64,000 nt of DNA from contig CAJOGI010000007.1 of the NCBI GenBank assembly GCA_905234075.1, forward strand, positions 19,550-83,549, written 5' to 3'. The notes beneath the pieces were generated by a model that made no database searches, was not told the origin of the DNA, and saw nothing but the letters and a program-made list of their open reading frames with translations. Below, one piece after another: positions 8,749-40,402 of this stretch. Position 1 is the first letter of the stretch, and every line of letters begins with the position of its first letter. The DNA comes from an uncultured Synergistales bacterium (GTDB lineage Bacteria; Synergistota; Synergistia; Synergistales; Aminobacteriaceae). A program made the translations under genes and the position numbers.

Positions 8749-10593
8749 ATGTATATAAAAATTTTTAGAGCCTTTATATTTTTAGCTCTGCTTTCTCATC
8801 TGTCCGTAGCCTTCGCGGCATCTCCAATCATAATGAACGGCGATGCGCACGTCGGAGAGCAGGCTGTATTGTCTGTTGAAGCATCTCAAATTCCTGCGGG
8901 CAGTTCCGTTGAATGGTCAGTCAGTCCGACGACAGGCAAGACCCCCGACAGAATTTCATTGAGGGCCGGAGGCTTTGAATGTGCTTTCACGCCGCTGGAC
9001 ACCCAGCCTATAAAAGTTGTAGCGTCTTTCATTGACAGAGGCGGCAATGTTATCTCCAGTTCGGAAAAATTAATAAATCCCAAAGAATTTGAAATTAATA
9101 TCGCGGTCGTTGTAGATAAGCCTTTAACTTTATGGGACGCTTCTAAACGTTCAAATTACGCGTTAAATCCTGATGCTTTAATGGCAACAGCTCCGATAAA
9201 AATACGCGCCGTACTCGTGCCGGAATTTAACGGTCCTCACTCTTTTACTTGGGAGGCTGACGGGGCTACTGCTTTGATGAGCGCGGACGCTAATGAAATT
9301 TTCATAAGGCGCGGAAGCGTCGGAGAGAGTGAAATTTATGTAACGGCGTTCAACTCTTCCGGGATTAAATTAGGAAGCGGAGAGAGCGTTGTAAATATTA
9401 ATATGCCCGTGTCAACTTTTGAAGAGAGCGCAAATAACCGCGAGGCTTGGCAGAACTGGCAGAAAGCTCAGGAATTATGGGAGAGCAAAAATTACGCCGA
9501 AGCTGTAGAGTTTGCAAATAAATCAATAGTTCTTTCGCCGAGAGACACAGAAATAGCCGAAGGCATACGCGCAATGGCTACGAATTACGGAAGATACATG
9601 AAGGCTCAAAAATTGCGTGAGGATGCCGAAAAATACGACGCTGAAAAAAAATTTGAAGAAGCATTAAGAAATCTTCGCGCTGCTAATGTCGTCTGGCCTC
9701 TCGACGACGCACCGGAAAAAATAAAAGCCATTGAGGAAAAACTCAACGAGCAAAGACTTTTACAGCAAGAGGCAAACTGGCTGCGCGATACCGCTTCAGC
9801 TTACGACAACGAGAACATGTACGAAGAAGCACTAGAATTTTATGCTAAGAGTATGGCTGTCATGTCGTCTGACGCTGTAGCGGACAGAATAGATAAAATT
9901 CAAAAGAGGCTTGAATTAATTGCCGACGCTGACAGATACGCAAGCGAAGGAAATACTTACGAACGCGAAGGAAAATTAGATGACGCTCTCACTCACTACA
10001 CCGCAAGCGTCATGAGCAACCCTGACGCAACTTTAAGACAGCATATCGAGGAGCTTCAAAGCGTTATATCGCGCCGTGAACGTCAGGCGAACGCTCTCTA
10101 CAGGGAAGGCCAAGACCTTCAGCGCAGAAACAGATTAAAAGAAGCGTTAGCCCGTTATCAGGAAAGCATGAACCTTTGGGAAAATGACAACGCGAAGCAG
10201 AGAATACAGCAGCTTCGCAACGTGAGACTTGACCCTGATGTAAAATTGCGCGGCCCGGAAGATTTCGGCATAGGCACAAAAATTGAAGCTCAAAAAATTA
10301 TCAAGTCTGCTGACGGGCTTTATGCTGAAGGAAAACTCGATGAGGCTTTAGAACTTTACAGAAGGGCATTAAAAATTTCACCGTCCAACGAATTACAAAA
10401 GTGGGCGGCCCATATTTTTGACATAGTCAAGGAACGCGACACATCAGCGGCGGCAAACAAACAGATTAAAGAAGCAAACGCGCTCTACAGGGCAGGAAAG
10501 ATTAAAGAAGCTCTCGATCTTTACCGCCAGAGTCTGACGATTCACAAGAACGCGGAGATCGAGGAATTTCTCAAAAAGCAGGTGCAGAATTAA
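8749..10593 (+). CDS. secreted protein with N-terminal Ig-like region and C-terminal TPR-like repeats
   Basis: Signal peptide MYIKIFRAFIFLALLSHLSVAFA. Multiple approximately 34-aa helical repeats are present (EEALEFYAKSM, DDALTHYTASVMSNPD, EALARYQESMNLWEND, DEALELYRRALKISPSN, EALDLYRQSLTIHKN). Confidence 0.55.
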   Translation: MYIKIFRAFIFLALLSHLSVAFAASPIIMNGDAHVGEQAVLSVEASQIPAGSSVEWSVSPTTGKTPDRISLRAGGFECAFTPLDTQPIKVVASFIDRGGNVISSSEKLINPKEFEINIAVVVDKPLTLWDASKRSNYALNPDALMATAPIKIRAVLVPEFNGPHSFTWEADGATALMSADANEIFIRRGSVGESEIYVTAFNSSGIKLGSGESVVNINMPVSTFEESANNREAWQNWQKAQELWESKNYAEAVEFANKSIVLSPRDTEIAEGIRAMATNYGRYMKAQKLREDAEKYDAEKKFEEALRNLRAANVVWPLDDAPEKIKAIEEKLNEQRLLQQEANWLRDTASAYDNENMYEEALEFYAKSMAVMSSDAVADRIDKIQKRLELIADADRYASEGNTYEREGKLDDALTHYTASVMSNPDATLRQHIEELQSVISRRERQANALYREGQDLQRRNRLKEALARYQESMNLWENDNAKQRIQQLRNVRLDPDVKLRGPEDFGIGTKIEAQKIIKSADGLYAEGKLDEALELYRRALKISPSNELQKWAAHIFDIVKERDTSAAANKQIKEANALYRAGKIKEALDLYRQSLTIHKNAEIEEFLKKQVQN

Positions 10594-27561: not shown

Positions 27562-27638
27562 CTGGCGCGGTAGGCAGGATTCGAACCCACGACCTAAGGC
27601 TCCGTAGGCCTTCGCTCTATCCAGCTGAGCTACTACCG
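27562..27638 (-). tRNA. tRNA-Arg (anticodon ACG)
   Basis: Manual cloverleaf: acceptor GCGGTAG/CTACCGC, D-arm GCTC-AGCTGGATA-GAGC, anticodon stem AAGGC/GCCTT with loop CTACGGA, T-loop TTCGAAT, and a CCA end. Confidence 0.8.
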
Positions 27639-27658
27639 CAGGATTTTGATTTTATTTT

Positions 27659-27752
27659 ATGGCGGTGGGTGTGAGATTCGAACTCACGATAGAGTTATTA
27701 GACCCTATACTCACTTAGCAGGCGAGCGCCTTCAGCCTCTCGGCCAACCCAC
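27659..27752 (-). tRNA. tRNA-Ser (anticodon GCT), long variable arm, CCA encoded
   Basis: GGTGGGTTGGCCGAGAGG...CCTGCTAAGTGAG...GTGAGTTCGAATCTCAC-ACCCACC-G-CCA. Length 94 nt. Confidence 0.8.
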
Positions 27753-28148
27753 CGTAAAACAAAACGGTGCATATATTATAACGGTATTAAAATATTGTCA
27801 AACGAATTTTTTTAGAGTGTCAGGAAAAATTATTTTCTTCTTCAAAAAAAATTTTATGCTAAAATATTTTTATTCCATTCAAAATTTTAAGAAAGAATTT
27901 TTTGCAACTACATTTACACCTACAAAAAGTTCAAAAATTTTTTGCGCCGATAAAATTTTACGGAGCTGATTAAAAAAATAGAATCAAAGATTTTTTTTAA
28001 GGCTTGGAAAAAATTTTTGCGATGAGTTTGTAATAATATCCGTTAATTTCAAAGGGCCTTGCGGGCATACTCATTACTAGGTACGCTTCGTGCATCGAGA
28101 CAGAAAATTTTTTTGCGATTGTTGTTTGAGCTTCATAGTCCGGGTCGG

Positions 28149-28514
28149 TTACGCGGATTTTTTATAGCGGACGCCGTTATAAATGAAATCTGCCCGTCCG
28201 CGTATATTGCCGCTATAATTTTCGACGAAATAAATTTTTAATTCTTCAACACGGATTAACATCAGGGAGTAATTTAATCTTAGTCTGCTCATTTCGTACT
28301 CGTTCACATAATTACGCGGAGTTCCAAAAATATATTTATGCTCTTCTGTCGGGTGAATTTTTAGGACTTCTTCTAACTTCATTCGCCCCATTTTTAGCCA
28401 GGGCGTGTATTTGATCATGCAGTCTTCAGTGTGGTTGTGGTGTGGGATTTTTCGCGCTATTCCGATTCTGCCGACGTCGAGAGGCGCGCAGCTCCCGGAG
28501 TCGTTCACGAACAT
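28149..28514 (-). CDS. hypothetical protein, possibly a frameshifted continuation of the DUF488 gene
   Basis: The ORF opens 5 nt after the DUF488 ORF stop, in a different frame. The N-terminus SCAPLDVGRIGIARKI weakly resembles the DUF488 C-terminal CxE...CHR..IA segment. Confidence 0.25.
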   Translation of the reverse strand: MFVNDSGSCAPLDVGRIGIARKIPHHNHTEDCMIKYTPWLKMGRMKLEEVLKIHPTEEHKYIFGTPRNYVNEYEMSRLRLNYSLMLIRVEELKIYFVENYSGNIRGRADFIYNGVRYKKSA

Positions 28515-28518
28515 TAAA

Positions 28519-28827
28519 TTAAAATCCGCAAGCGGCTCGTCTGTCCATCAGAAAATTATATTGAACTTCGTAATTATCCCAAGTGATTTTTTCTTTTTTG
28601 TAGTCGTCTAAAATTTTTTTCGTGGGCGCGTATTCCTTGCGGTGTTCGTATTTACAGCCGCATATGACTTTGAGAAAATATTTTAAGTCTTTTTTCTTCG
28701 CGAATCCTGCGAGCTGTGTACTGTTGTGAAGCCGAACGTCAATTAGAAGTTTTATATTTTTCTGCCTTATCGTCTCAAAAAATTGTTCGGCTGATTTTTG
28801 AGTGAAGCCGATTGTGTAAATAATCAT
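28519..28827 (-). CDS. DUF488-family protein (N-terminal portion, possibly truncated by a frameshift)
   Basis: MIIYTIGFTQKSAEQFFETIRQKNIKLLIDVRLHNST matches the DUF488 N-terminal signature (IYTIGHS...DVR). The ORF ends early. Confidence 0.45.
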   Translation of the reverse strand: MIIYTIGFTQKSAEQFFETIRQKNIKLLIDVRLHNSTQLAGFAKKKDLKYFLKVICGCKYEHRKEYAPTKKILDDYKKEKITWDNYEVQYNFLMDRRAACGF

Positions 28828-31598: not shown

Positions 31599-32402
31599 AT
31601 GATAATTGATATTAGTGATTTAGGCTCGATAATTTCCGGGCTTGGAACGATTGCAGTAGCTGTTTTTTTTCTTTTAATCGTGCTGTCAACGGCGATTAAA
31701 GTTGTGCCTGAATACAGGCGCATTGTTTTATTCAGACTGGGCCGTCTTGTTGGGAGCAGAGGGCCTGGAATTGTTTTCATAATGCCTTTTATTGACCGTG
31801 CCATAACGGTTGATTTAAGAATTTTGACGCTCGATGTTCCTGTTCAGGAAGTCATCACAAAAGACAACGTAGCTATAAAAGTCAACGCCGTTGTATATTT
31901 CAGAGTGCTTGAACCGTCAAAATCAGTTGTCGAAGTTGAAAATTACATCGTAGCAACAAGCCAATTAGCTCAGACAACTTTGCGCTCTGTCGTAGGATCT
32001 GTTGAGCTTGACGAAGTTTTATCATCGCGTGAAAAAATCAATCAGGAGCTGCAAAAAATTATTGATGACCGCACCGACCCATGGGGCATAAAAGTCAGTG
32101 CAGTTGAAGTTAAAGAGCTTGAATTACCTGAAGGAATGAAACGCGCAATGGCTCGCCAGGCCGAAGCAGAAAGAGAGCGCAGGGCAAAAATCATCGCCGC
32201 TGAAGGAGAATTGCAGGCCGCTGAAAAATTATCGGAAGCCGCACGCAAAATGGAAGCATCGCCGATTACTTTACAGTTGCGCTATTTACAGACCATACGC
32301 GAGATTTCCGGCGAACGCAATACAACAACATTCTTCCCTGTTCCGGTTGATTTAATCAAGCCGTTTGTAGATAAGCTGACTGGCGGTGAAAAGAGCGCAT
32401 GA
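31599..32402 (+). CDS. SPFH/Band-7 (stomatin-like) family protein
   Basis: N-terminal TM helix followed by an SPFH domain and an [16 protein letters not shown] coiled-coil tail. Confidence 0.8.
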
Positions 32403-35041
32403 AATACAGAACTGCAAAAGAATTACGGGAGATGTTCATAAAATTTTGGGAGGAGAAAGGCGCAAAGCACCTCCCAAGTTTTTCATTAGTTCCTGAAGAT
32501 CCGTCGCTGTTGTTCACTATTGCAGGAATGGTGCCGCTTAAGCCCTATTATTTAGGAATTAAAGAGCCTGAATACCCAAGAGTTGTAACGTCTCAAAAAT
32601 GTGTTCGCACTAACGATATTGAAAACGTCGGAAGAACTGCGCGTCATCATACATTTTTTGAGATGTTGGGGAATTTTTCATGGGGAAGTTATTTCAAGCG
32701 TGAAGCGATAACTTGGGCATGGGAATTTTTAACGGAGCGTGTAGGGCTTGACCCCGAAAGACTTTACGCGACAATCTATAAAGACGATGAAGAAGCCTAT
32801 AATGTTTGGCACAAAGACGTAGGACTTCCGGAAAATAAAATTTTCAGATTTGGACAGGACGACAATTATTGGTTTATGGGCGATACGGGGCCCTGCGGGC
32901 CATGCTCTGAGATTTATTACGACAGGGGCGAAAAATATTCATGCGGTAAACCGACCTGCGGAGTCGGCTGCGACTGCGACAGATATATGGAGATATGGAA
33001 CTTAGTTTTCACGCAGTTCGACAGACAAAAAGACGGCTCTTTGCCGTTACTGCCGCACAAAAATATAGATACGGGAATGGGACTTGAGCGTCTTGCTTCA
33101 GTCGTTCAGGAGGTCGATACTGATTACGAGACGGATTTATTTACGCCGCTGATAAAGCATACTTGCGAAAAAGCCGGAATAAAATACGGCGATAATCCTA
33201 AAAATGACATGGCCGTTAGAGTTATAGCCGACCATGTGAGAAGCGTTGCTTTTATGCTTGCTGACGGTGTTCTGCCTTCAAACGACGGGCCCGGCTATGT
33301 TCTTAGAAGATTGTTAAGACGCGCTGTGCGTTTTGGTAAATTGTTGAATTTTGACGGGCTTTTCCTTTGTGAATACATGCCGATTTTAATTGACATAATG
33401 GGCGAGCCTTACCGCGAATTAATTACACAGCGTCCAGTAATCGAACAGATTATTAATCTCGAAGAAGAGAAATTTAACAAGACATTAAAGCAGGGCACAG
33501 AGCTTTTTGACAGTGAGATAGCCTCGTTAAAAGCAAAAAATATAACTCAAATTCCAGGCGATGTAATTTTTACATTGTATGATACTTTCGGATTTCCGCC
33601 GGAATTAACCCGCGAAATGGCTAGCGAGCAGAATTTTACTCTTGATGAAGAGGGCTTCAAGGCCGCAATGAACGAACAGAAAGAACGCGCAAGGGCATCA
33701 AGCAAACAAAAGAAAAGCGCGTTGACAGGCGATATTTACACGGAGCTTGAAAACGAGTTCGGAGCAACAAAATTTACGGGTTACGAAAAAGCTAACGATA
33801 CGGGAAAAATTTTGGCTCTCATCACATCAGACGGACGGGTTGACAGCGTAACATCAGGCGAATTTGAAATTATCCTCGATACAACGCCGTTTTACGCTGA
33901 ACGCGGCGGAGAAGTAGGCGATATCGGCACAATGACAATAAACGGCCATGCAATAGAAATATTAAATACAATTCCTCATGGAAAAATCATTGTACATAGT
34001 GCAAGGCTTAAAGATAAGAACGAAATCAAAGTCGGCGACGAGGTTTTGTGTTCAGTTGATGATGAAAGAAGAAGCGCAATCAGACGCAATCACACAGCAA
34101 CGCATTTGTTACACGAGGCATTAGGGCGCATCTTGGGCCGTCATGTAAGGCAGGCAGGCTCGCTTGTTAATGATATGTTTCTGAGATTTGATTTTACTCA
34201 TCATTCACCAATGAGCGACACTGAAATTGCAGAAGCTGAAAAAATTATCAATCAGGAAATATTAAATAATGTGCCTCTCGATATTTCCGAACATTCAAAA
34301 GAAGAGGCTCAAGCACTCGGCGCAAAAGCCCTCTTTGATGAAAAATACGGCGATGTTGTCAGAGTTGTAAATGTCCCTGAATTTTCTATGGAACTTTGCG
34401 GAGGTTTGCACGTTTCAAGAACAGGCGATATAGGCGCATTCAAGATTTTACGAGAGGAGAGCATTGGCTCAGGCACTCGCAGAATTTTGGCAACAACGGG
34501 CATGAATGTTTTAATGCTGATGCAAAAGTTATTTGCGTTAAGAAATTCATTGACCGCGCTTTTAATGACTGATGAGGACGGATTGAAAGATAAAGCAGCT
34601 GCTCTTGTCGATGACTTAAAGACAATGAAAAATCAAATTCAAGCCGCAAAATTAAAGGAGCTTTTGGAAAATTCCGAGAGATTTTTGGAGCGTGAGGAGC
34701 TTGACGGAATTTTAATTCAGACGGGGAGATTTTCTGACATTCAAGCAAACATGCTGCGCGACATCGGAGACAAAGCACGCGCAAGACCTGAGCCGAATAT
34801 CGTTATTTTAGCGTCATTGAGTACTGAAGATAATTCGTGCCAATTATGCGTCATGGCTGATGACAAAGCCGTCAACATGGGAATTAACGCCGGTGTTTTG
34901 GTAAAAGAAGCCTGCGTTATTCTCGGCGGTAAAGGCGGCGGCAGGAAAAATCTTGCTCAAGGCGGAGGACGCAACGGCGAAAAACTCGAAGAAGCATTAA
35001 CAAAAATCCGCGAGCTTGTGGAAACTCAAATTAAAAAATAA
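32399..35041 (+). CDS. alaS: alanine--tRNA ligase
   Basis: 880 aa. Class II AlaRS motifs are present, plus a zinc HxxxH editing domain and a C-terminal DHHA1 domain. Confidence 0.95.
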
Positions 35042-35170
35042 CAAAGGAGAATGTTTTTTGAAATTTAATTTATTGGATACTGCTTCAGGCTGGGAGGTCT
35101 GGAGCAGGTAAGAACTCTCAGAACCTCCGATATAACAAAAAATTTAATTTTATTTTGGAGGTTTGCGAAA

Positions 35171-35587
35171 TTGAACAGAGAAAATAAAAGGAAGCTGTTT
35201 GAGAAAGGCTATTACAAAAATCACGCCTGTAATGACGGCTTTACGTGCAAAGAATGCGGCTGGAAAGTTAGCCCGCCTCTTTACGGTGAAAGGCACAGAA
35301 ATCACTGCAATAATTGCCTATCGAGCCTTCATCTTGATAACGAGCCGGGCGACAGAGAAGCCGACTGCGGAGGAATTATGGAACCCATAGGCGTTTGGGT
35401 TAAGAAAAATGGCGAGTGGGCAATTATTCATCGCTGTAAAAGGTGCGGTCATTTAAGTTCCAATCATGTTGCGCCCGATGACAATCCAGTCAAGCTGATG
35501 TCTATTGCAATGCACCCGATAGCTTGTCCGCCGTTTCCTATTGAACGTATTGAGGAAATGGTGAAAGCTATGAGCAACGAAATATAA
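35171..35587 (+). CDS. RNHCP-domain (PF12647-like) Cys/His-rich zinc-ribbon protein
   Basis: 138 aa containing the RNHCNNC motif and multiple CxxC pairs (CKEC, CNNC, CKRC). TTG start with a ggagg SD. Confidence 0.55.
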   Translation: MNRENKRKLFEKGYYKNHACNDGFTCKECGWKVSPPLYGERHRNHCNNCLSSLHLDNEPGDREADCGGIMEPIGVWVKKNGEWAIIHRCKRCGHLSSNHVAPDDNPVKLMSIAMHPIACPPFPIERIEEMVKAMSNEI

Positions 35588-35652
35588 TTTTGTTCTCCCG
35601 TTGTTTATGTGTTATTATAACGGGAGAATTTTTCAAATTTAACGAAAGGAGC

Positions 35653-37407
35653 ATGAAAAAATTGCCAAAATTAGAGACAAAAGACAAGACAGTTAAGCAA
35701 CTTTTTGAAGACAATAGAACGCATTTCCTTATTCCCGATTATCAACGGCCTTATGAATGGGACGATAAAGAGTGCGGTACTTTATGGACAGATTTATATA
35801 CGTTTGCGTTCCCTGATAATGAGCCTGAAAAATTTGATTGGGATAATAACGAATATTTTTTAGGGCCGATTGTTACTTTTACCAATGAGAACAGCGCAAA
35901 AGAAGTAATCGATGGACAACAGCGTCTTACAACGTTAATGCTTTTGCTTCGGGCATTTTATACGGAATTTGAAAAGAAACAAGATAAAAATTCCATTAAA
36001 GCTCGCGACCAAATAGGGGCGTGTATTTGGAAAACAGATGAAATTGATGATACTCCGGATATGGCTTCTTGCAAACTTGAGACCGAAGTAGCAACAGATG
36101 AGGCAAAAGAAGACTTCAAGGAAATTTTGAAAACAGGCGCAATCTCAAAAGACAAAAAAAGCCGTTATGCCAACAATTACAGATTTTTTCAAAATAAAAT
36201 CACTGAGTTTCTTCAAAAATATGACGGTTATTTAGCACACTTCTCCGCAAGAATTTTGAAAAATTGTATAATCCTTGATATCTTGGCCAGTTCCTCCGAA
36301 GCAGCGATGAGAATTTTCACAACCCTCAACGATCGCGGCAAGCCGTTATCTGACGCAGATATTTTCAAGTCTCAGCTCTATAAATATTACAAAGAACTTG
36401 AAAACAAAGATAAATTTATCAAACGTTGGAAAGAATTAGAAGAAGTTTCTTCTGAAATTTATCATCCTATTGTAGGTACTCCAATGGACGAGGCTTTCAC
36501 TCGTTACATGTATTACGAGAGAGCAAGGCAGGGGAACAAATCATCAACGATAGAGGCTCTGCGAAAATTTTATGAGAAAGACTCATATGCCCTTTTGAAA
36601 AATGGTGCGACGTTCGACAACATCGTTGACCTTGCAAATTTTTGGAAGTCCGTTTCCTTGCAGGACAAAGAAAGATTTTCTGATAAAATTCTCAAGCGTC
36701 TTTTCGTTTTGAATTACGCCCCCAACGGAATGTGGACTTACATAACGTCAGTTTATTATATTCGGAATAGGAGCGAGAACGGTTTGCTTGATGAGGAAAA
36801 GTTTTATGATTTTCTGAACAAAATCACCGCTTTCATATGGGGATATTCTTTCATAAATCCCGGCGTGAACGCGCTCAGAACTCCCATATATGCTGAGATG
36901 GTTAATATTGTCGATGATAAAAGAGTTGAATTTAAGGAATATAAAATTGATTTGAATCAGCTCGAAAACGCTATTAAAAATTACGTGTTCACTAATACGC
37001 GCACCATTACTAAATCAATGCTTGCATGGTGGGCTTTTAACGATGAAAATCAAGAGCTGCTGGAATTGAATAAATCGTTTCAAATTGAACACATTTACGC
37101 AAAAAAACGACTTGAATTTGACCGTAGCTTTTCAAATCCACACAATATCGAGTTATTAGGGAATAAGGCGTTACTGGAAGGCAACATAAATATTCGCGCC
37201 TCCGATTATCATTTTGCGGATAAAGTTAAATATTATAAGGGGTTCAAAAATTCACGCGGTCAATCAATAGGCGGAACCTCCATTAAAGAGCTTCAGGACT
37301 TGGCTAAAAATGCTAAGGACTTCACCGAAAACGATATAGTCCAGCGCAACGCTTTAATCGTTCAAAAGTTCATTGAGTATCTGAGAAAGAATGACCTCCT
37401 CAAATAA
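35653..37407 (+). CDS. GmrSD-type (type IV restriction-like) nuclease: N-terminal DUF262 (ParB/NTPase-like, DGQQR) plus C-terminal DUF1524 (His-Me finger)
   Basis: IPDYQRPYEWDDKEC...IDGQQRLTTL is the DUF262 signature. The C-terminal segment FQIEHIYAKK...NPHNIELLGNKAL is DUF1524-like. The start was chosen at MKKLPK, where an ATG follows a gaaaggag SD. The ORF track start at 35590 is probably too long. Confidence 0.7.
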   Translation: MKKLPKLETKDKTVKQLFEDNRTHFLIPDYQRPYEWDDKECGTLWTDLYTFAFPDNEPEKFDWDNNEYFLGPIVTFTNENSAKEVIDGQQRLTTLMLLLRAFYTEFEKKQDKNSIKARDQIGACIWKTDEIDDTPDMASCKLETEVATDEAKEDFKEILKTGAISKDKKSRYANNYRFFQNKITEFLQKYDGYLAHFSARILKNCIILDILASSSEAAMRIFTTLNDRGKPLSDADIFKSQLYKYYKELENKDKFIKRWKELEEVSSEIYHPIVGTPMDEAFTRYMYYERARQGNKSSTIEALRKFYEKDSYALLKNGATFDNIVDLANFWKSVSLQDKERFSDKILKRLFVLNYAPNGMWTYITSVYYIRNRSENGLLDEEKFYDFLNKITAFIWGYSFINPGVNALRTPIYAEMVNIVDDKRVEFKEYKIDLNQLENAIKNYVFTNTRTITKSMLAWWAFNDENQELLELNKSFQIEHIYAKKRLEFDRSFSNPHNIELLGNKALLEGNINIRASDYHFADKVKYYKGFKNSRGQSIGGTSIKELQDLAKNAKDFTENDIVQRNALIVQKFIEYLRKNDLLK

Positions 37408-37831
37408 TAATCCCGGCCGCGTCTTGGCCCTCGACATCGGCACAGTCAGAATAGGCGCGGCAATTTCTGACCCTAATCAGATAATCGCTCAGGGCTTGGG
37501 CGTGTGGAACGCTGAAAATGACGAATGGCTCAAAAATTTTGACGAGTGTTTGAAAAAATATGCCCCGTCTTTAATTGTTCTTGGCCTGCCCGTTCGGACT
37601 GACGGCAAAAAAAGCGAACGCGCTGAAAAAATTTTAGAGCTTCTCGAAAAATTAAAACTTCAATATCCCGACAGAAATTTTATAACTCATGACGAAAGAT
37701 TTACAACGGTTATAGCTCAAAGAGCGTTGCTCGAAGCCGACACTTCCCGAAAAAAAAGGAAAAAAACCGTTGACAAAATCGCTGCTGTCATTATTCTTGA
37801 AAATTGGCTGGAATTTTCCCACCGTAAATAA
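37391..37831 (+). CDS. ruvX: Holliday junction resolvase-like protein RuvX (YqgF)
   Basis: VLALDIGTVRIGAAISDP matches the YqgF N-terminal motif. The start overlaps the end of the upstream gene by 17 nt. Confidence 0.85.
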   Translation: MTSSNNNPGRVLALDIGTVRIGAAISDPNQIIAQGLGVWNAENDEWLKNFDECLKKYAPSLIVLGLPVRTDGKKSERAEKILELLEKLKLQYPDRNFITHDERFTTVIAQRALLEADTSRKKRKKTVDKIAAVIILENWLEFSHRK

Positions 37832-37861
37832 ATTTTAATAACAAAACTGGAGGAATTTTAT

Positions 37862-40402
37862 TTGAATAATATGAATAATATTCAGGGCCTCTCTTCAGAA
37901 GAGGTAAAAACTAGCCGCATTAAATACGGCTCAAATGTTTTGACTGAACTTCCCAAAGAAACTCTCGCACGAAAATTTCTTAACAATTTGTCCGACCCCA
38001 TGATTATAATTTTGCTCTGCGCGCTCGTAATTCAGCTCGTTTTATTTTTCATGGGCAGGGCAGAATGGTTCGAGCCCTTCGGAATTTTCGTGGCTGTCTT
38101 AATCGCAGGCGGAGTGTCCTCAATCACAGAATATCAGCAGGAGCAGAAAGCCTCGTTTTTGAAATCTCAGCAGGAAGCCGGAGAAACTACGAAAGTAATA
38201 CGCGACGGAAGCATTCATGAAATTCATGTCAGCGAAGTCGTTACGGGCGATGTGATTTTTTTACAGGCCGGCGACAAAATTCCTGCGGACGGCGTTTTAA
38301 TTGACGGGGCTGTAAAAGTCGATCAGTCCGCTTTGAACGGCGAGACCGAAGAGGCTGAAAAAATCCCTAACGTTTCCGATGAAAAATTTGATATTAAAGA
38401 CCTGCTCAATAAATATTACGTCTATCGCGGAACTGTCGTCTGTTCTGGCGAAGGCTACGAAAAAATTTCCGTCGTCGGCGATAAAACTTTGTTCGGCGAA
38501 TTAGCTCTCGAAGTTCAGGAAGCTCAGAGAAAAACGCCGCTGCAGGTTAAGCTTGGAAAACTTGCAAAACAAATTTCAGTTTTCGGCTACACCGGAGCAA
38601 TCGCTATCGTTCTTGGAATTTTATTAAGAACTTTAATAACAGGAAATCTTCCGTCAGATTTTTACGCATGGGCGCAGCTTTTAATTGACGCGGTTACGGT
38701 CGCAGTAACTATTGTTGTCTGTGCCGTCCCGGAGGGTCTGCCTATGCTTACGTCAATGTTAATGTCTTTTCAGTCAATGCAGATGGCAGGGGATAACGTT
38801 CTCGTCAGAAAAATTAACGGGCTTGAGACTGCCGGAAGCCTTAATTTACTTTTCACCGATAAGACCGGAACAATAACCGAAGGAAGATTAACGATAGCTG
38901 AAATCGCTATGCCGGACGCAAAAGTTTTCACGGAATTGAAAGGACTTGATAACGAGACGTTGAACGATTTAATCATCGGCGCAGGCGTTAATAATTCCGC
39001 GACAGTCGGCGACGGTAACGTCATCGGGGGCAACAGCACGGACAGGGCTTTGATGTCATTCTTCAAAGACAACCCCAGCATATTAAAAATTATCTCGAAG
39101 GCCAAGAATGATGTTAAAAAATTCACGGCGTTTAATTCAGATAATAAAATGTCAACAGTTGAATTTAATGACGGCTCCGTTTATGTCAAGGGTGCACCCG
39201 AAAAAATCTTAGTTCAGTGCAAAAATATTCCCGACAGAAAAAAACTTGACGACTATATCAATGCTCAAGCCGACAGAGCCATGCGCTTACTGGCTATTGC
39301 AAAGGAAGCCGAAAATAAAATGGAGCTTATCTGCGTTTTAAGTATCCGTGATAACGTACGCAAAGAAGCCGTTGACGCAATAAAGCAGGTTCGTTCCGCA
39401 GGTATTCAAGTTGTCATGGTAACAGGCGACAGAAAAGAAACAGCCGTAGCAATCGCAAAAGAGGCCGGATTAATTTCAAGCCCGAACGAAATCGCTATGA
39501 CTTCTCAGGAAATGGCCGCAAAATCCGACGAAGAACTTAAAAAAATTCTTCCTGACCTCCGTGTAATTTCGCGTGCATTGCCTTCGGACAAGAGCAGGCT
39601 TGTAAAAATTGCTCAAGAATTAAATCTCGTTGTCGGCATGACGGGCGACGGAGTGAATGACTCGCCGGCTCTCAAAAAAGCTGATGTCGGCTTCGCTATG
39701 GGGTCGGGCACTGAAGTTGCTAAGGAGGCCGGAGACATTACAATCCTTGACGATAATTTTAAGTCAATCGCAAAGGCAATTTTATACGGCCGTTCGATGT
39801 TCAAGAGCATCAGAAAATTTTTAGTGTTCCAGCTTACTGTGAATGTTGCGGCTGTTGTTACGTGCTTCTTAGGGCCTTTGTTCGGTCAAAATATCATGCT
39901 CACGGTAATTCAATTATTATTAATTAATCTTGCAATGGACACGTTGGCGGCGATCGCCTTCGGGTCGGAGCCTCCGCGCGAGCAGTACATGAATGAAAAG
40001 CCGATACCGAGAGACGAGAACATTATCACGCCTTCAATGTTCAATGACATTTTGATCGGAGCGGCTTATGTAACTTTAATCTGCATGGCCGTGATGTTCT
40101 TCGGGCCTGTCAAAAAATTATTCATGACCGACGATATAATTTACTTGCGCACAGCTCTTTTTGCCGTGTTTATGATGTCGATAACCTTCAACGGGCTTTC
40201 AATGGCTTCATCTAAGAACTGCGTGCTCGTGATGTTATTTATATTTGTTCTTCAGTGGGTGTTCGTCGAGTTTGGCGGCGAAGTTTTGAGCGTTAAAGCG
40301 TTGAGCTTAGACTCGTGGCTTAACTGCTTCGTTCTTGCAGTGCTTATCGTCCCGGTGAAGATGGGCATAGAATTTTTGATTAAAAAATATTACAGAAAAT
40401 AA
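37862..40402 (+). CDS. P-type cation-transporting ATPase (type II, Ca2+-ATPase-like)
   Basis: Phosphorylation motif DKTGTITEG, hinge motif TGDGVNDSPALKKADVGFAMG, and a 10-TM architecture. Confidence 0.85.
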   Translation: MNNMNNIQGLSSEEVKTSRIKYGSNVLTELPKETLARKFLNNLSDPMIIILLCALVIQLVLFFMGRAEWFEPFGIFVAVLIAGGVSSITEYQQEQKASFLKSQQEAGETTKVIRDGSIHEIHVSEVVTGDVIFLQAGDKIPADGVLIDGAVKVDQSALNGETEEAEKIPNVSDEKFDIKDLLNKYYVYRGTVVCSGEGYEKISVVGDKTLFGELALEVQEAQRKTPLQVKLGKLAKQISVFGYTGAIAIVLGILLRTLITGNLPSDFYAWAQLLIDAVTVAVTIVVCAVPEGLPMLTSMLMSFQSMQMAGDNVLVRKINGLETAGSLNLLFTDKTGTITEGRLTIAEIAMPDAKVFTELKGLDNETLNDLIIGAGVNNSATVGDGNVIGGNSTDRALMSFFKDNPSILKIISKAKNDVKKFTAFNSDNKMSTVEFNDGSVYVKGAPEKILVQCKNIPDRKKLDDYINAQADRAMRLLAIAKEAENKMELICVLSIRDNVRKEAVDAIKQVRSAGIQVVMVTGDRKETAVAIAKEAGLISSPNEIAMTSQEMAAKSDEELKKILPDLRVISRALPSDKSRLVKIAQELNLVVGMTGDGVNDSPALKKADVGFAMGSGTEVAKEAGDITILDDNFKSIAKAILYGRSMFKSIRKFLVFQLTVNVAAVVTCFLGPLFGQNIMLTVIQLLLINLAMDTLAAIAFGSEPPREQYMNEKPIPRDENIITPSMFNDILIGAAYVTLICMAVMFFGPVKKLFMTDDIIYLRTALFAVFMMSITFNGLSMASSKNCVLVMLFIFVLQWVFVEFGGEVLSVKALSLDSWLNCFVLAVLIVPVKMGIEFLIKKYYRK

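Follow-up and report, generated by a model that had tools for sequence, protein, structure and literature searches.

Do the two genes between alaS and ruvX in an uncultured Synergistales bacterium form a two-gene defence system, or is one of them a solitary nuclease gene that happens to lie beside a native neighbour? The locus is part of the 64,000-nucleotide stretch of contig CAJOGI010000007.1 analysed here (the window), in which alaS, a 138-amino-acid open reading frame (ORF), a long ORF and ruvX are four genes on one strand (32399-37831). A preliminary description of this DNA took the two middle genes, an RNHCP protein and a GmrSD-type nuclease, to be a single insertion at 35042-37407 and a candidate defence system. 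We conclude instead, with a probability of about 0.8, that the long ORF encodes a solitary GmrSD-family nuclease, that its gene has been carried for a long time by one clade of Synergistaceae, and that RNHCP is not its partner.

The locus is identical to that of the goat-rumen Synergistaceae metagenome-assembled genome GCA_017443985.1 (RGIG3568). The identical RNHCP protein is found on 19 contigs, and gene order is the same on all six of these that were displayed. Loci used for comparison are labelled L0xx or L1xx, the genome of the window being L021, and homologous proteins are labelled P0xxx. The features of the window locus are as follows.

32399-35041, plus strand: alaS (alanyl-tRNA synthetase), the upstream housekeeping flank; PF01411 at E 1e-203, with tRNA_SAD and DHHA1; syntenic in related Synergistaceae.
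35080-35164, plus strand: predicted structured leader with two hairpins between alaS and RNHCP; conserved in L012-L014.
35171-35587, plus strand: RNHCP-domain protein of 138 amino acids, a native gene; PF12647 at E 4.9e-38 in the Pfam search; G+C content (GC) 0.448.
35592-35634, plus strand: terminator-like hairpin in the RNHCP-GmrSD spacer, with a 13-base-pair stem followed by five U residues; -19.5 kcal/mol, z -3.7.
35644-35655, plus strand: ribosome-binding site GAAAGGAG and ATG start (35653) of the GmrSD gene, from the sequence, gene calls and homologue alignments.
35653-37407, plus strand: GmrSD-family nuclease (DUF262, helical linker, DUF1524) of 584 amino acids, an accessory gene, from Pfam, PADLOC and an AlphaFold2 (AF2) model.
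35911-35925, plus strand: DGQQR motif (D87-R91), the nucleoside triphosphate (NTP) binding and hydrolysis signature of DUF262; invariant in 21 homologues.
37087-37191, plus strand: His-Me finger motif E479-H480...N504...N513 (E/D-H-N-N); invariant in 21 homologues.
37391-37407, plus strand: 17-nucleotide overlap of the 3' end of the GmrSD gene with the ruvX start codon.
37391-37831, plus strand: ruvX (yqgF), the downstream housekeeping flank; PF03652 at E 6e-38.

Pfam searches confirm that genes with AlaRS and RuvX domains flank two same-strand genes, that the shorter of these encodes an RNHCP protein, and that the longer has the DUF262/DUF1524 architecture ascribed to it in the preliminary description. 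The DUF262 match (PF03235, E 3.9e-39) scores 135 bits against a cutoff of 33, and the DUF1524 match (PF07510, E 3e-5) is marginal, with 24.4 bits against a cutoff of 23. Neither protein matched NCBIfam. The motifs IPDYQRPYEW, DGQQRLTTL and FQIEHIYAKK are all found in the long ORF as reported. VIDGQQRLTTL occupies residues 85-95, and both D87-R91 and the four residues E479, H480, N504 and N513 are invariant in the 21 homologues. The GmrSD family has been defined by the motifs (I/V)(I/V)DGQQRLTT and E/D-H-N-N (Machnicka et al. 2015, PMC4619093). The window protein carries the DUF262 and the DUF1524 motif in a single polypeptide with a helical linker (range 200-400 residues), as expected of a family member. 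Its translation likely begins at ATG 35653, following GAAAGGAG, to give 584 amino acids; a start at TTG 35590 (605 amino acids) is less likely. Public gene calls of 581 and 584 amino acids and homologue alignments that begin at residue 1-4 support the ATG.

The AF2 model of the protein has a predicted local distance difference test score (pLDDT) of 78, and roughly residues 170-460 are helical in it. Among structures in the PDB, only DndI (9JFL) and SspE (6JIV, 7DRR, 7DRS) are significant Foldseek matches to this model, over the full length and with probability 1.00 (E 4e-10 to 4e-8, 571-648 aligned columns). By sequence the protein weakly matches a DUF262 protein and SspE. The best PADLOC scores are 122 bits for HEC-06, 118 for Orf5 and 70 for SspE. 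The HEC-06 models range from 111 to 122 bits and one of them is matched at full length, while the Orf5/DndI models range from 92 to 118 bits; the best model of all is PDLC04157 (122 bits), and PDLC04154 aligns residues 22-561 of the 605-amino-acid ORF to positions 1-539 of 569. To judge from these sequence comparisons, the window protein looks like a member of a subfamily related to HEC-06 and separate from it. Because the similarity to HEC-06 and DndI is only distant, their targets and their logic of self/non-self discrimination are not transferable to it.

The genomic surroundings of its relatives point towards restriction. The immediate neighbours of the 69 closest relatives outside Synergistaceae (43-62% identity) are enriched in parts of Type I and Type III restriction systems, and 102 such neighbours include ResIII (13), HSDR_N (6), SWI2_SNF2 (6), N6_Mtase (4), HsdM_N (3) and AbiEii (1). 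Homologues of about 30% identity are encoded on Enterococcus and Lactococcus plasmids. Together with the Pfam and PADLOC matches and the match of the AF2 model to DndI and SspE, these neighbours bear out the earlier view that the second gene is a credible defence gene. The comparison documents a subfamily of solitary GmrSD-like nucleases whose members (60-74% identity) occur widely among bacteria of the gut and rumen.

Identity matrices of host genes divide the Synergistaceae loci into three clades, A, B and C. Clade A (the window, L018, L101, L105, L103 and L022) has the HEC-06-like gene, although L022 is without it and L018 is read as a loss. Orthologues are found in the order alaS-RNHCP-GmrSD-ruvX-ATPase (P0122, 74% identity), DnaJ-Band_7-alaS-RNHCP-GmrSD-ruvX (P0127, 69%) and fumarase-GmrSD-ruvX-ATPase (P0126, 69%). 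In L103 and L104 a remnant of RNHCP of about 60 nucleotides (GFECKICGWKVNPP fused to FP) lies upstream of an intact GmrSD-ruvX pair, and fumarase rather than alaS is found upstream. In L022 (92% RNHCP identity) RNHCP abuts ruvX and GmrSD is missing. L018-L020, whose RNHCP is 93% identical at the protein level and whose flanks are 92-96% identical at the nucleotide level, have alaS-RNHCP, about 50 nucleotides and then ruvX. Clade B (L012-L014) has nothing between RNHCP and ruvX: in L012 (80% RNHCP identity) and L013-L016 (74%) the order is Band_7-alaS-RNHCP-ruvX; GmrSD is lacking, and the stop of RNHCP overlaps the start of ruvX.

Clade C (L023, L187 and L188) has a BrxU-like gene in this region. 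In L023 it lies between RNHCP and ruvX, matches PADLOC HEC-05 with 660 bits, and encodes a protein about 26% identical over 200 amino acids to the window protein. Its closest homologues sit in the same region of L187, in the order SDH_alpha-RNHCP-BrxU-like-ruvX, and of L188/L189, in the order alaS-BrxU-like-(SDH_beta remnant)-ruvX, with RNHCP absent from the locus. L103 and L188 lost RNHCP from the locus in separate events and kept the nuclease gene; RNHCP may still be encoded elsewhere in these genomes. Each GmrSD type looks like a single acquisition per clade.

Several of these loci have features of their own. In L103 (660-720) RNHCP was apparently deleted between two CCGCCG repeats. In L022 (10400-10460; Synergistaceae RGIG3217) ruvX is in the same frame as the TGA that ends RNHCP (..KQME*NKIIGRVLALD), and upstream of the catalytic-Asp region of ruvX there is no canonical start codon. 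This points to a non-AUG start, to readthrough or to an error in the assembly. L023 has a terminator-like hairpin and T-run (TCCCTG..CAGGGA CTTTTT; 10409-10495) between the RNHCP stop and the BrxU-like gene, a parallel to the window hairpin even though the insertion is independent. Pieces of serine dehydratase occur upstream of RNHCP (SDH_alpha, L187 249-1130) and as a remnant (SDH_beta, L188 7952-8152); these mobile pieces indicate repeated rearrangement around ruvX in clade C.

Within one clade of Synergistaceae, the GmrSD gene has long been resident and has passed down vertically. Flanking genes are 85-91% identical to those of the window in L101 and 79-85% in L103, and the corresponding values for GmrSD are 74% and 69%. 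Synonymous divergence (dS) is 1.55 for GmrSD and 1.37 for the flanking ATPase, and the ratio of non-synonymous to synonymous divergence (dN/dS) of GmrSD is about 0.11. Among strains of this species the gene shows 16 synonymous and 3 non-synonymous differences. GC at third codon positions (GC3) of the gene follows each host (0.31, 0.32, 0.39 and 0.57).

The loci without the gene agree with this history. The DNA missing from L018-L020, the closest relative without it, corresponds to about 35602-37402 by blastn and, in a multi-locus alignment, to essentially the GmrSD ORF and its leader. A hairpin homologous to that at 35592-35634 follows RNHCP in L101 and L105 and is retained in L018, which also keeps a stretch that resembles the GmrSD 3' end and contains the ruvX ATG (AAAAATGGAAATTAA; in L101, AAAAATGGCCTCATTAAATAA). 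Occupied loci have this hairpin and ruvX ATG region too, whereas the abutting junctions of L012, L014 and L022 have neither, so L018-L020 more likely represent a secondary deletion than a pre-insertion site. A model that placed the left insertion junction in the hairpin loop, with L018-L020 as the pre-insertion site, was rejected on the strength of the multi-locus alignment. The N-terminal extension of ruvX had also been considered as an insertion scar. This holds in part: a homologous NKIIGRV leader occurs in L022 as well, so the resemblance to the GmrSD 3' end is confined to the stretch with the ATG.

Against this background, a joint acquisition of RNHCP and GmrSD as a two-gene defence system, with RNHCP as sensor, regulator or neutraliser, is extremely improbable. 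Five species-level loci of Synergistaceae do have the two genes side by side on one strand: a HEC-06-like gene adjoins RNHCP in the window, L101 and L105, and a BrxU-like one does so in L023 and L187. However, two subfamilies of about 26% identity beside the same RNHCP fit a shared location better than a specific partnership, RNHCP occupies the same site without any GmrSD in four other species, and a GmrSD-type gene is retained both in L103/L104, where RNHCP has decayed, and in L188/L189, which have no RNHCP at the locus. We screened 80 species-level RNHCP loci with up to 10 kb of flank, detecting DUF262 by the regular expression [DE]GQQR, a family hidden Markov model (HMM) and a second query; a single-sequence phmmer search had missed the divergent BrxU-like gene of L023. 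DUF262 adjoins RNHCP in just two of these loci, L021 and L023, both at the Synergistaceae alaS/ruvX locus, and a further match is a 142-amino-acid fragment 3 kb away in L059. Outside this slot, 76 of 77 RNHCP loci are without DUF262 within 10 kb, and clustering of the neighbours in the 80 loci revealed no conserved neighbour of RNHCP of any kind. Nor is RNHCP, ruvX or alaS found within 6 kb of GmrSD relatives in any of 80 metagenome loci (33-62% identity to the GmrSD protein). A PADLOC search with RNHCP gave no match. The preliminary description had portrayed both genes as lower in GC and tightly spaced. The GmrSD gene does have the lowest GC (0.371) among 37 long ORFs (mean 0.442, standard deviation 0.031), but RNHCP at 0.448 is host-like (0.431 for the window). 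Likewise, a 65-nucleotide spacer containing the 13-base-pair hairpin and its U5 tract intervenes between the RNHCP stop and the GmrSD ATG; the close coupling is that of GmrSD with ruvX. With GC differing between the genes and the indel boundaries enclosing GmrSD only, the idea of one insertion spanning both falls away. An alaS-linked RNHCP gene in related genomes, an outcome named beforehand as refuting the proposed system, was found: alaS-RNHCP-ruvX without GmrSD is conserved in L012, L013-L016, L018-L020 and L022. Since RNHCP belongs to this conserved arrangement, the two-gene reading fails, and a false lead, RNHCP plus GmrSD as a new two-gene defence system, is removed. RNHCP is a native, highly conserved gene that stands upstream of GmrSD by chance.

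Two further explanations were considered. That GmrSD is a recent horizontal islet at a high-turnover hotspot, with L018-L020 as the pre-insertion state, would suit its low GC and its absence from the relative closest by flanking genes, and yet this is very unlikely: more distant members of the clade carry orthologues at the same position, GC3 falls short of the window mean by only about 1.3 standard deviations and varies with the host from species to species, and the hairpin and the stretch resembling the GmrSD 3' end in L018 point to secondary deletion. The locus showed no sign of an integrase, a transposase or flanking direct repeats (for Pfam, among the best 25 of 67 families in the window). 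Alternatively, GmrSD-family genes could be recruited or retained specifically upstream of ruvX and be linked to ruvX or its operon, not to RNHCP. Possible reasons are co-regulation or translational coupling with an essential gene, in the manner of an addiction-like anchoring, or an interplay of the His-Me nuclease with RuvX, a nuclease of the RNase H fold. Such a link, which we consider unlikely, would account for the presence of two unrelated subfamilies (HEC-06-like and BrxU-like) at one position in a pair of sister clades. It would also account for their persistence, each in three or more species and despite rearrangements that took out alaS or RNHCP, and for the conserved stop/start overlap (17 nucleotides also in L101, L104 and L105, and 8 nucleotides in L103). 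However, the space between RNHCP and ruvX is empty in clade B and in two lineages of clade A, so the GmrSD gene is dispensable to ruvX and to the operon alike. Moreover, none of the 80 relatives outside Synergistaceae lies near ruvX, the BrxU-like gene of L188 is about 1 kb away from ruvX, with a gene remnant in between, and it could be coincidence that a very common family of single-gene defences was captured twice at one permissive site. We consider it unlikely that the position upstream of ruvX in rumen Synergistaceae is a dedicated, long-lived site for GmrSD-family genes, with two independent captures that were each kept for long and coupled to ruvX translation. If it were, GmrSD-type nucleases would be bound functionally or by regulation to ruvX or its operon, for example through essential-gene anchoring or a shared nucleic-acid substrate, instead of using a permissive site by chance.

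Some observations weigh against a solitary nuclease of this kind. In the AF2 model, pLDDT falls below 50 in the nuclease core (residues 484-519), and PADLOC scores of 111-122 bits signify distant kinship to HEC-06 and DndI. DndI and SspE need phosphorothioation of host DNA, yet there are no dnd, ssp or restriction-modification (RM) genes among the best 25 of 26 PADLOC models or the best 25 of 67 Pfam families for the 64-kb window, and no Dnd or Ssp modification genes among the best 25 of 91 Pfam families for the 102 neighbours of relatives. A setting within a housekeeping operon is atypical for defence genes. Finally, RNHCP could act in trans where it is missing from the locus.

The solitary nuclease would have arrived at the RNHCP-ruvX junction in the ancestor of one rumen Synergistaceae clade, to be inherited vertically thereafter under purifying selection with occasional loss. 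By analogy with EcoCT GmrSD, BrxU, HEC-06, SspE and DndI, its N-terminal DUF262 domain would be a ParB-like NTPase and sensor, in which the DGQQR domain binds and hydrolyses NTP and gates the nuclease. The C-terminal DUF1524 His-Me finger may then nick or cut phage DNA, told from host DNA by its modification state, and type IV restriction of hypermodified phage DNA would be the simplest guess by the same analogy. Transcription that passes the hairpin after RNHCP, or a promoter-like site at 35561-35588, probably drives expression of the gene, and translation of ruvX may be coupled to the GmrSD 3' end. Observed in this analysis are the domains, the motifs, the fold class, synteny, presence or absence among loci and selection; the defence role, the target, transcription and the coupling are inferred.

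A phage-borne origin was also considered. The good matches in phage databases are all to unannotated faecal 'Bacteriophage sp.' contigs and were judged uninformative. Contigs MT836461.1 and MT836270.1, from human faecal viromes, encode RNHCP of 71.5-73% identity, and MT839491.1 encodes a GmrSD homologue of 61% identity. These contigs probably represent bacterial sequence within virome data, as the 2.9 million viral contigs of IMG/VR are nearly devoid of RNHCP, with a single truncated match.

RNHCP itself is conserved at 69% identity or more across Synergistota and many families of Clostridia, with 587 confirmed matches in species-representative genomes. It is rich in Cys and His as first described, with 12 invariant residues of the two kinds, but has three CxxC pairs (C26/C29, C46/C49 and C89/C92) instead of at least four. 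No fold match was found in the PDB, and a literature search turned up no papers. This very conserved, uncharacterised zinc protein may be the more interesting question raised by the locus. Some variants carry internal tandem duplications of the zinc-binding segment (P0001, 204 amino acids; P0005, 185; P0049, 160), and P0001 has two RNHCP Pfam matches.

The leader of RNHCP (35080-35164) has a minimum free energy of -37.1 kcal/mol (z -3.45), and its sequence is conserved in L012-L014. In the predicted fold a 12-base-pair hairpin comes first. In the second helix, ACCUCC is base-paired with GGAGG (35158-35162), the Shine-Dalgarno sequence of RNHCP, and the leader is thus predicted to sequester the RNHCP ribosome-binding site. 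An upstream GGGAGGU could compete for ACCUCC and make the leader a possible translational switch. An Rfam search of 34500-38200 with E up to 1 gave no match.

Elsewhere in the window, on the minus strand at 27563-28827, genes for tRNA-Arg(ACG) and tRNA-Ser(GCT) adjoin a pair of genes for DUF488 (102 amino acids) and DuOB (121 amino acids) proteins. Both genes are longer in other strains (147 and 167 amino acids in L002), and in some strains the stretch carries HNH and PHD_like genes too. It is a strain-variable patch beside tRNA genes.

Solitary GmrSD-like restriction nucleases are a known kind, and the window protein is probably another member of it, distantly related to HEC-06 and DndI. The locus presents a gene of defence type stably embedded in a housekeeping operon, with a stop/start overlap to ruvX and a clade-specific replacement by a BrxU-like gene. 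Its one uncommon trait is that two GmrSD subfamilies have come to lie directly upstream of ruvX in Synergistaceae, repeatedly and for long periods. HEC-06 is an experimentally validated single-gene defence that is abolished by mutation of Q/R in DGQQR and of E/H (Payne et al., bioRxiv 10.1101/2024.01.29.577857). Like the window protein it is a single DUF262-linker-DUF1524 polypeptide of about 560-580 amino acids; the residues needed for its defence (DGQQR and E-H) are conserved in the window protein, and the adjacency of relatives of the window protein to Type I RM genes is a further likeness. However, the window protein reaches only about 110-120 bits on the HEC-06 models, compared with the 660 bits of the L023 protein on HEC-05, and its gene lies in a housekeeping operon rather than in an Hma or RM system.

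The PADLOC system 'Orf5' is DndI of the Salmonella dnd cluster (PMC4198939). In DndI and SspE, NTP hydrolysis by DUF262 is coupled to control of an HNH nickase, and self is discriminated by phosphorothioation of host DNA (PMC11662687). These proteins (9JFL and 6JIV/7DRR) are the best structural matches to the window AF2 model and share its layout of a DGQQR NTPase and an HNH nickase. In contrast, identity in the structural alignments is 13-15%, the global template-modelling (TM) score is about 0.32, reflecting domain orientation, and DndI and SspE act with adjacent dndBCDE or sspABCD, none of which is among the families listed for the window.

HEC-05 is BrxU (Payne et al., bioRxiv 10.1101/2024.01.29.577857), and BrxU and EcoCT GmrSD carry out type IV restriction of DNA containing glucosyl-hydroxymethylcytosine or hydroxymethylcytosine (PMC8565348, PMC4619093). 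Both belong to the same superfamily as the window protein and have the same defining motifs and domain order, but the window protein scores 38 bits on HEC-05. As a site, the locus resembles another arrangement, one with different or no restriction genes per lineage at a fixed position between conserved genes. Escherichia coli has such an arrangement in its 'immigration control region', a variable restriction locus flanked by conserved core genes. Unlike that region, the Synergistaceae site holds one gene inside an alaS-RNHCP-ruvX operon, where it overlaps an essential gene, and its occupancy follows clades, being old and vertical, rather than strain-level turnover.

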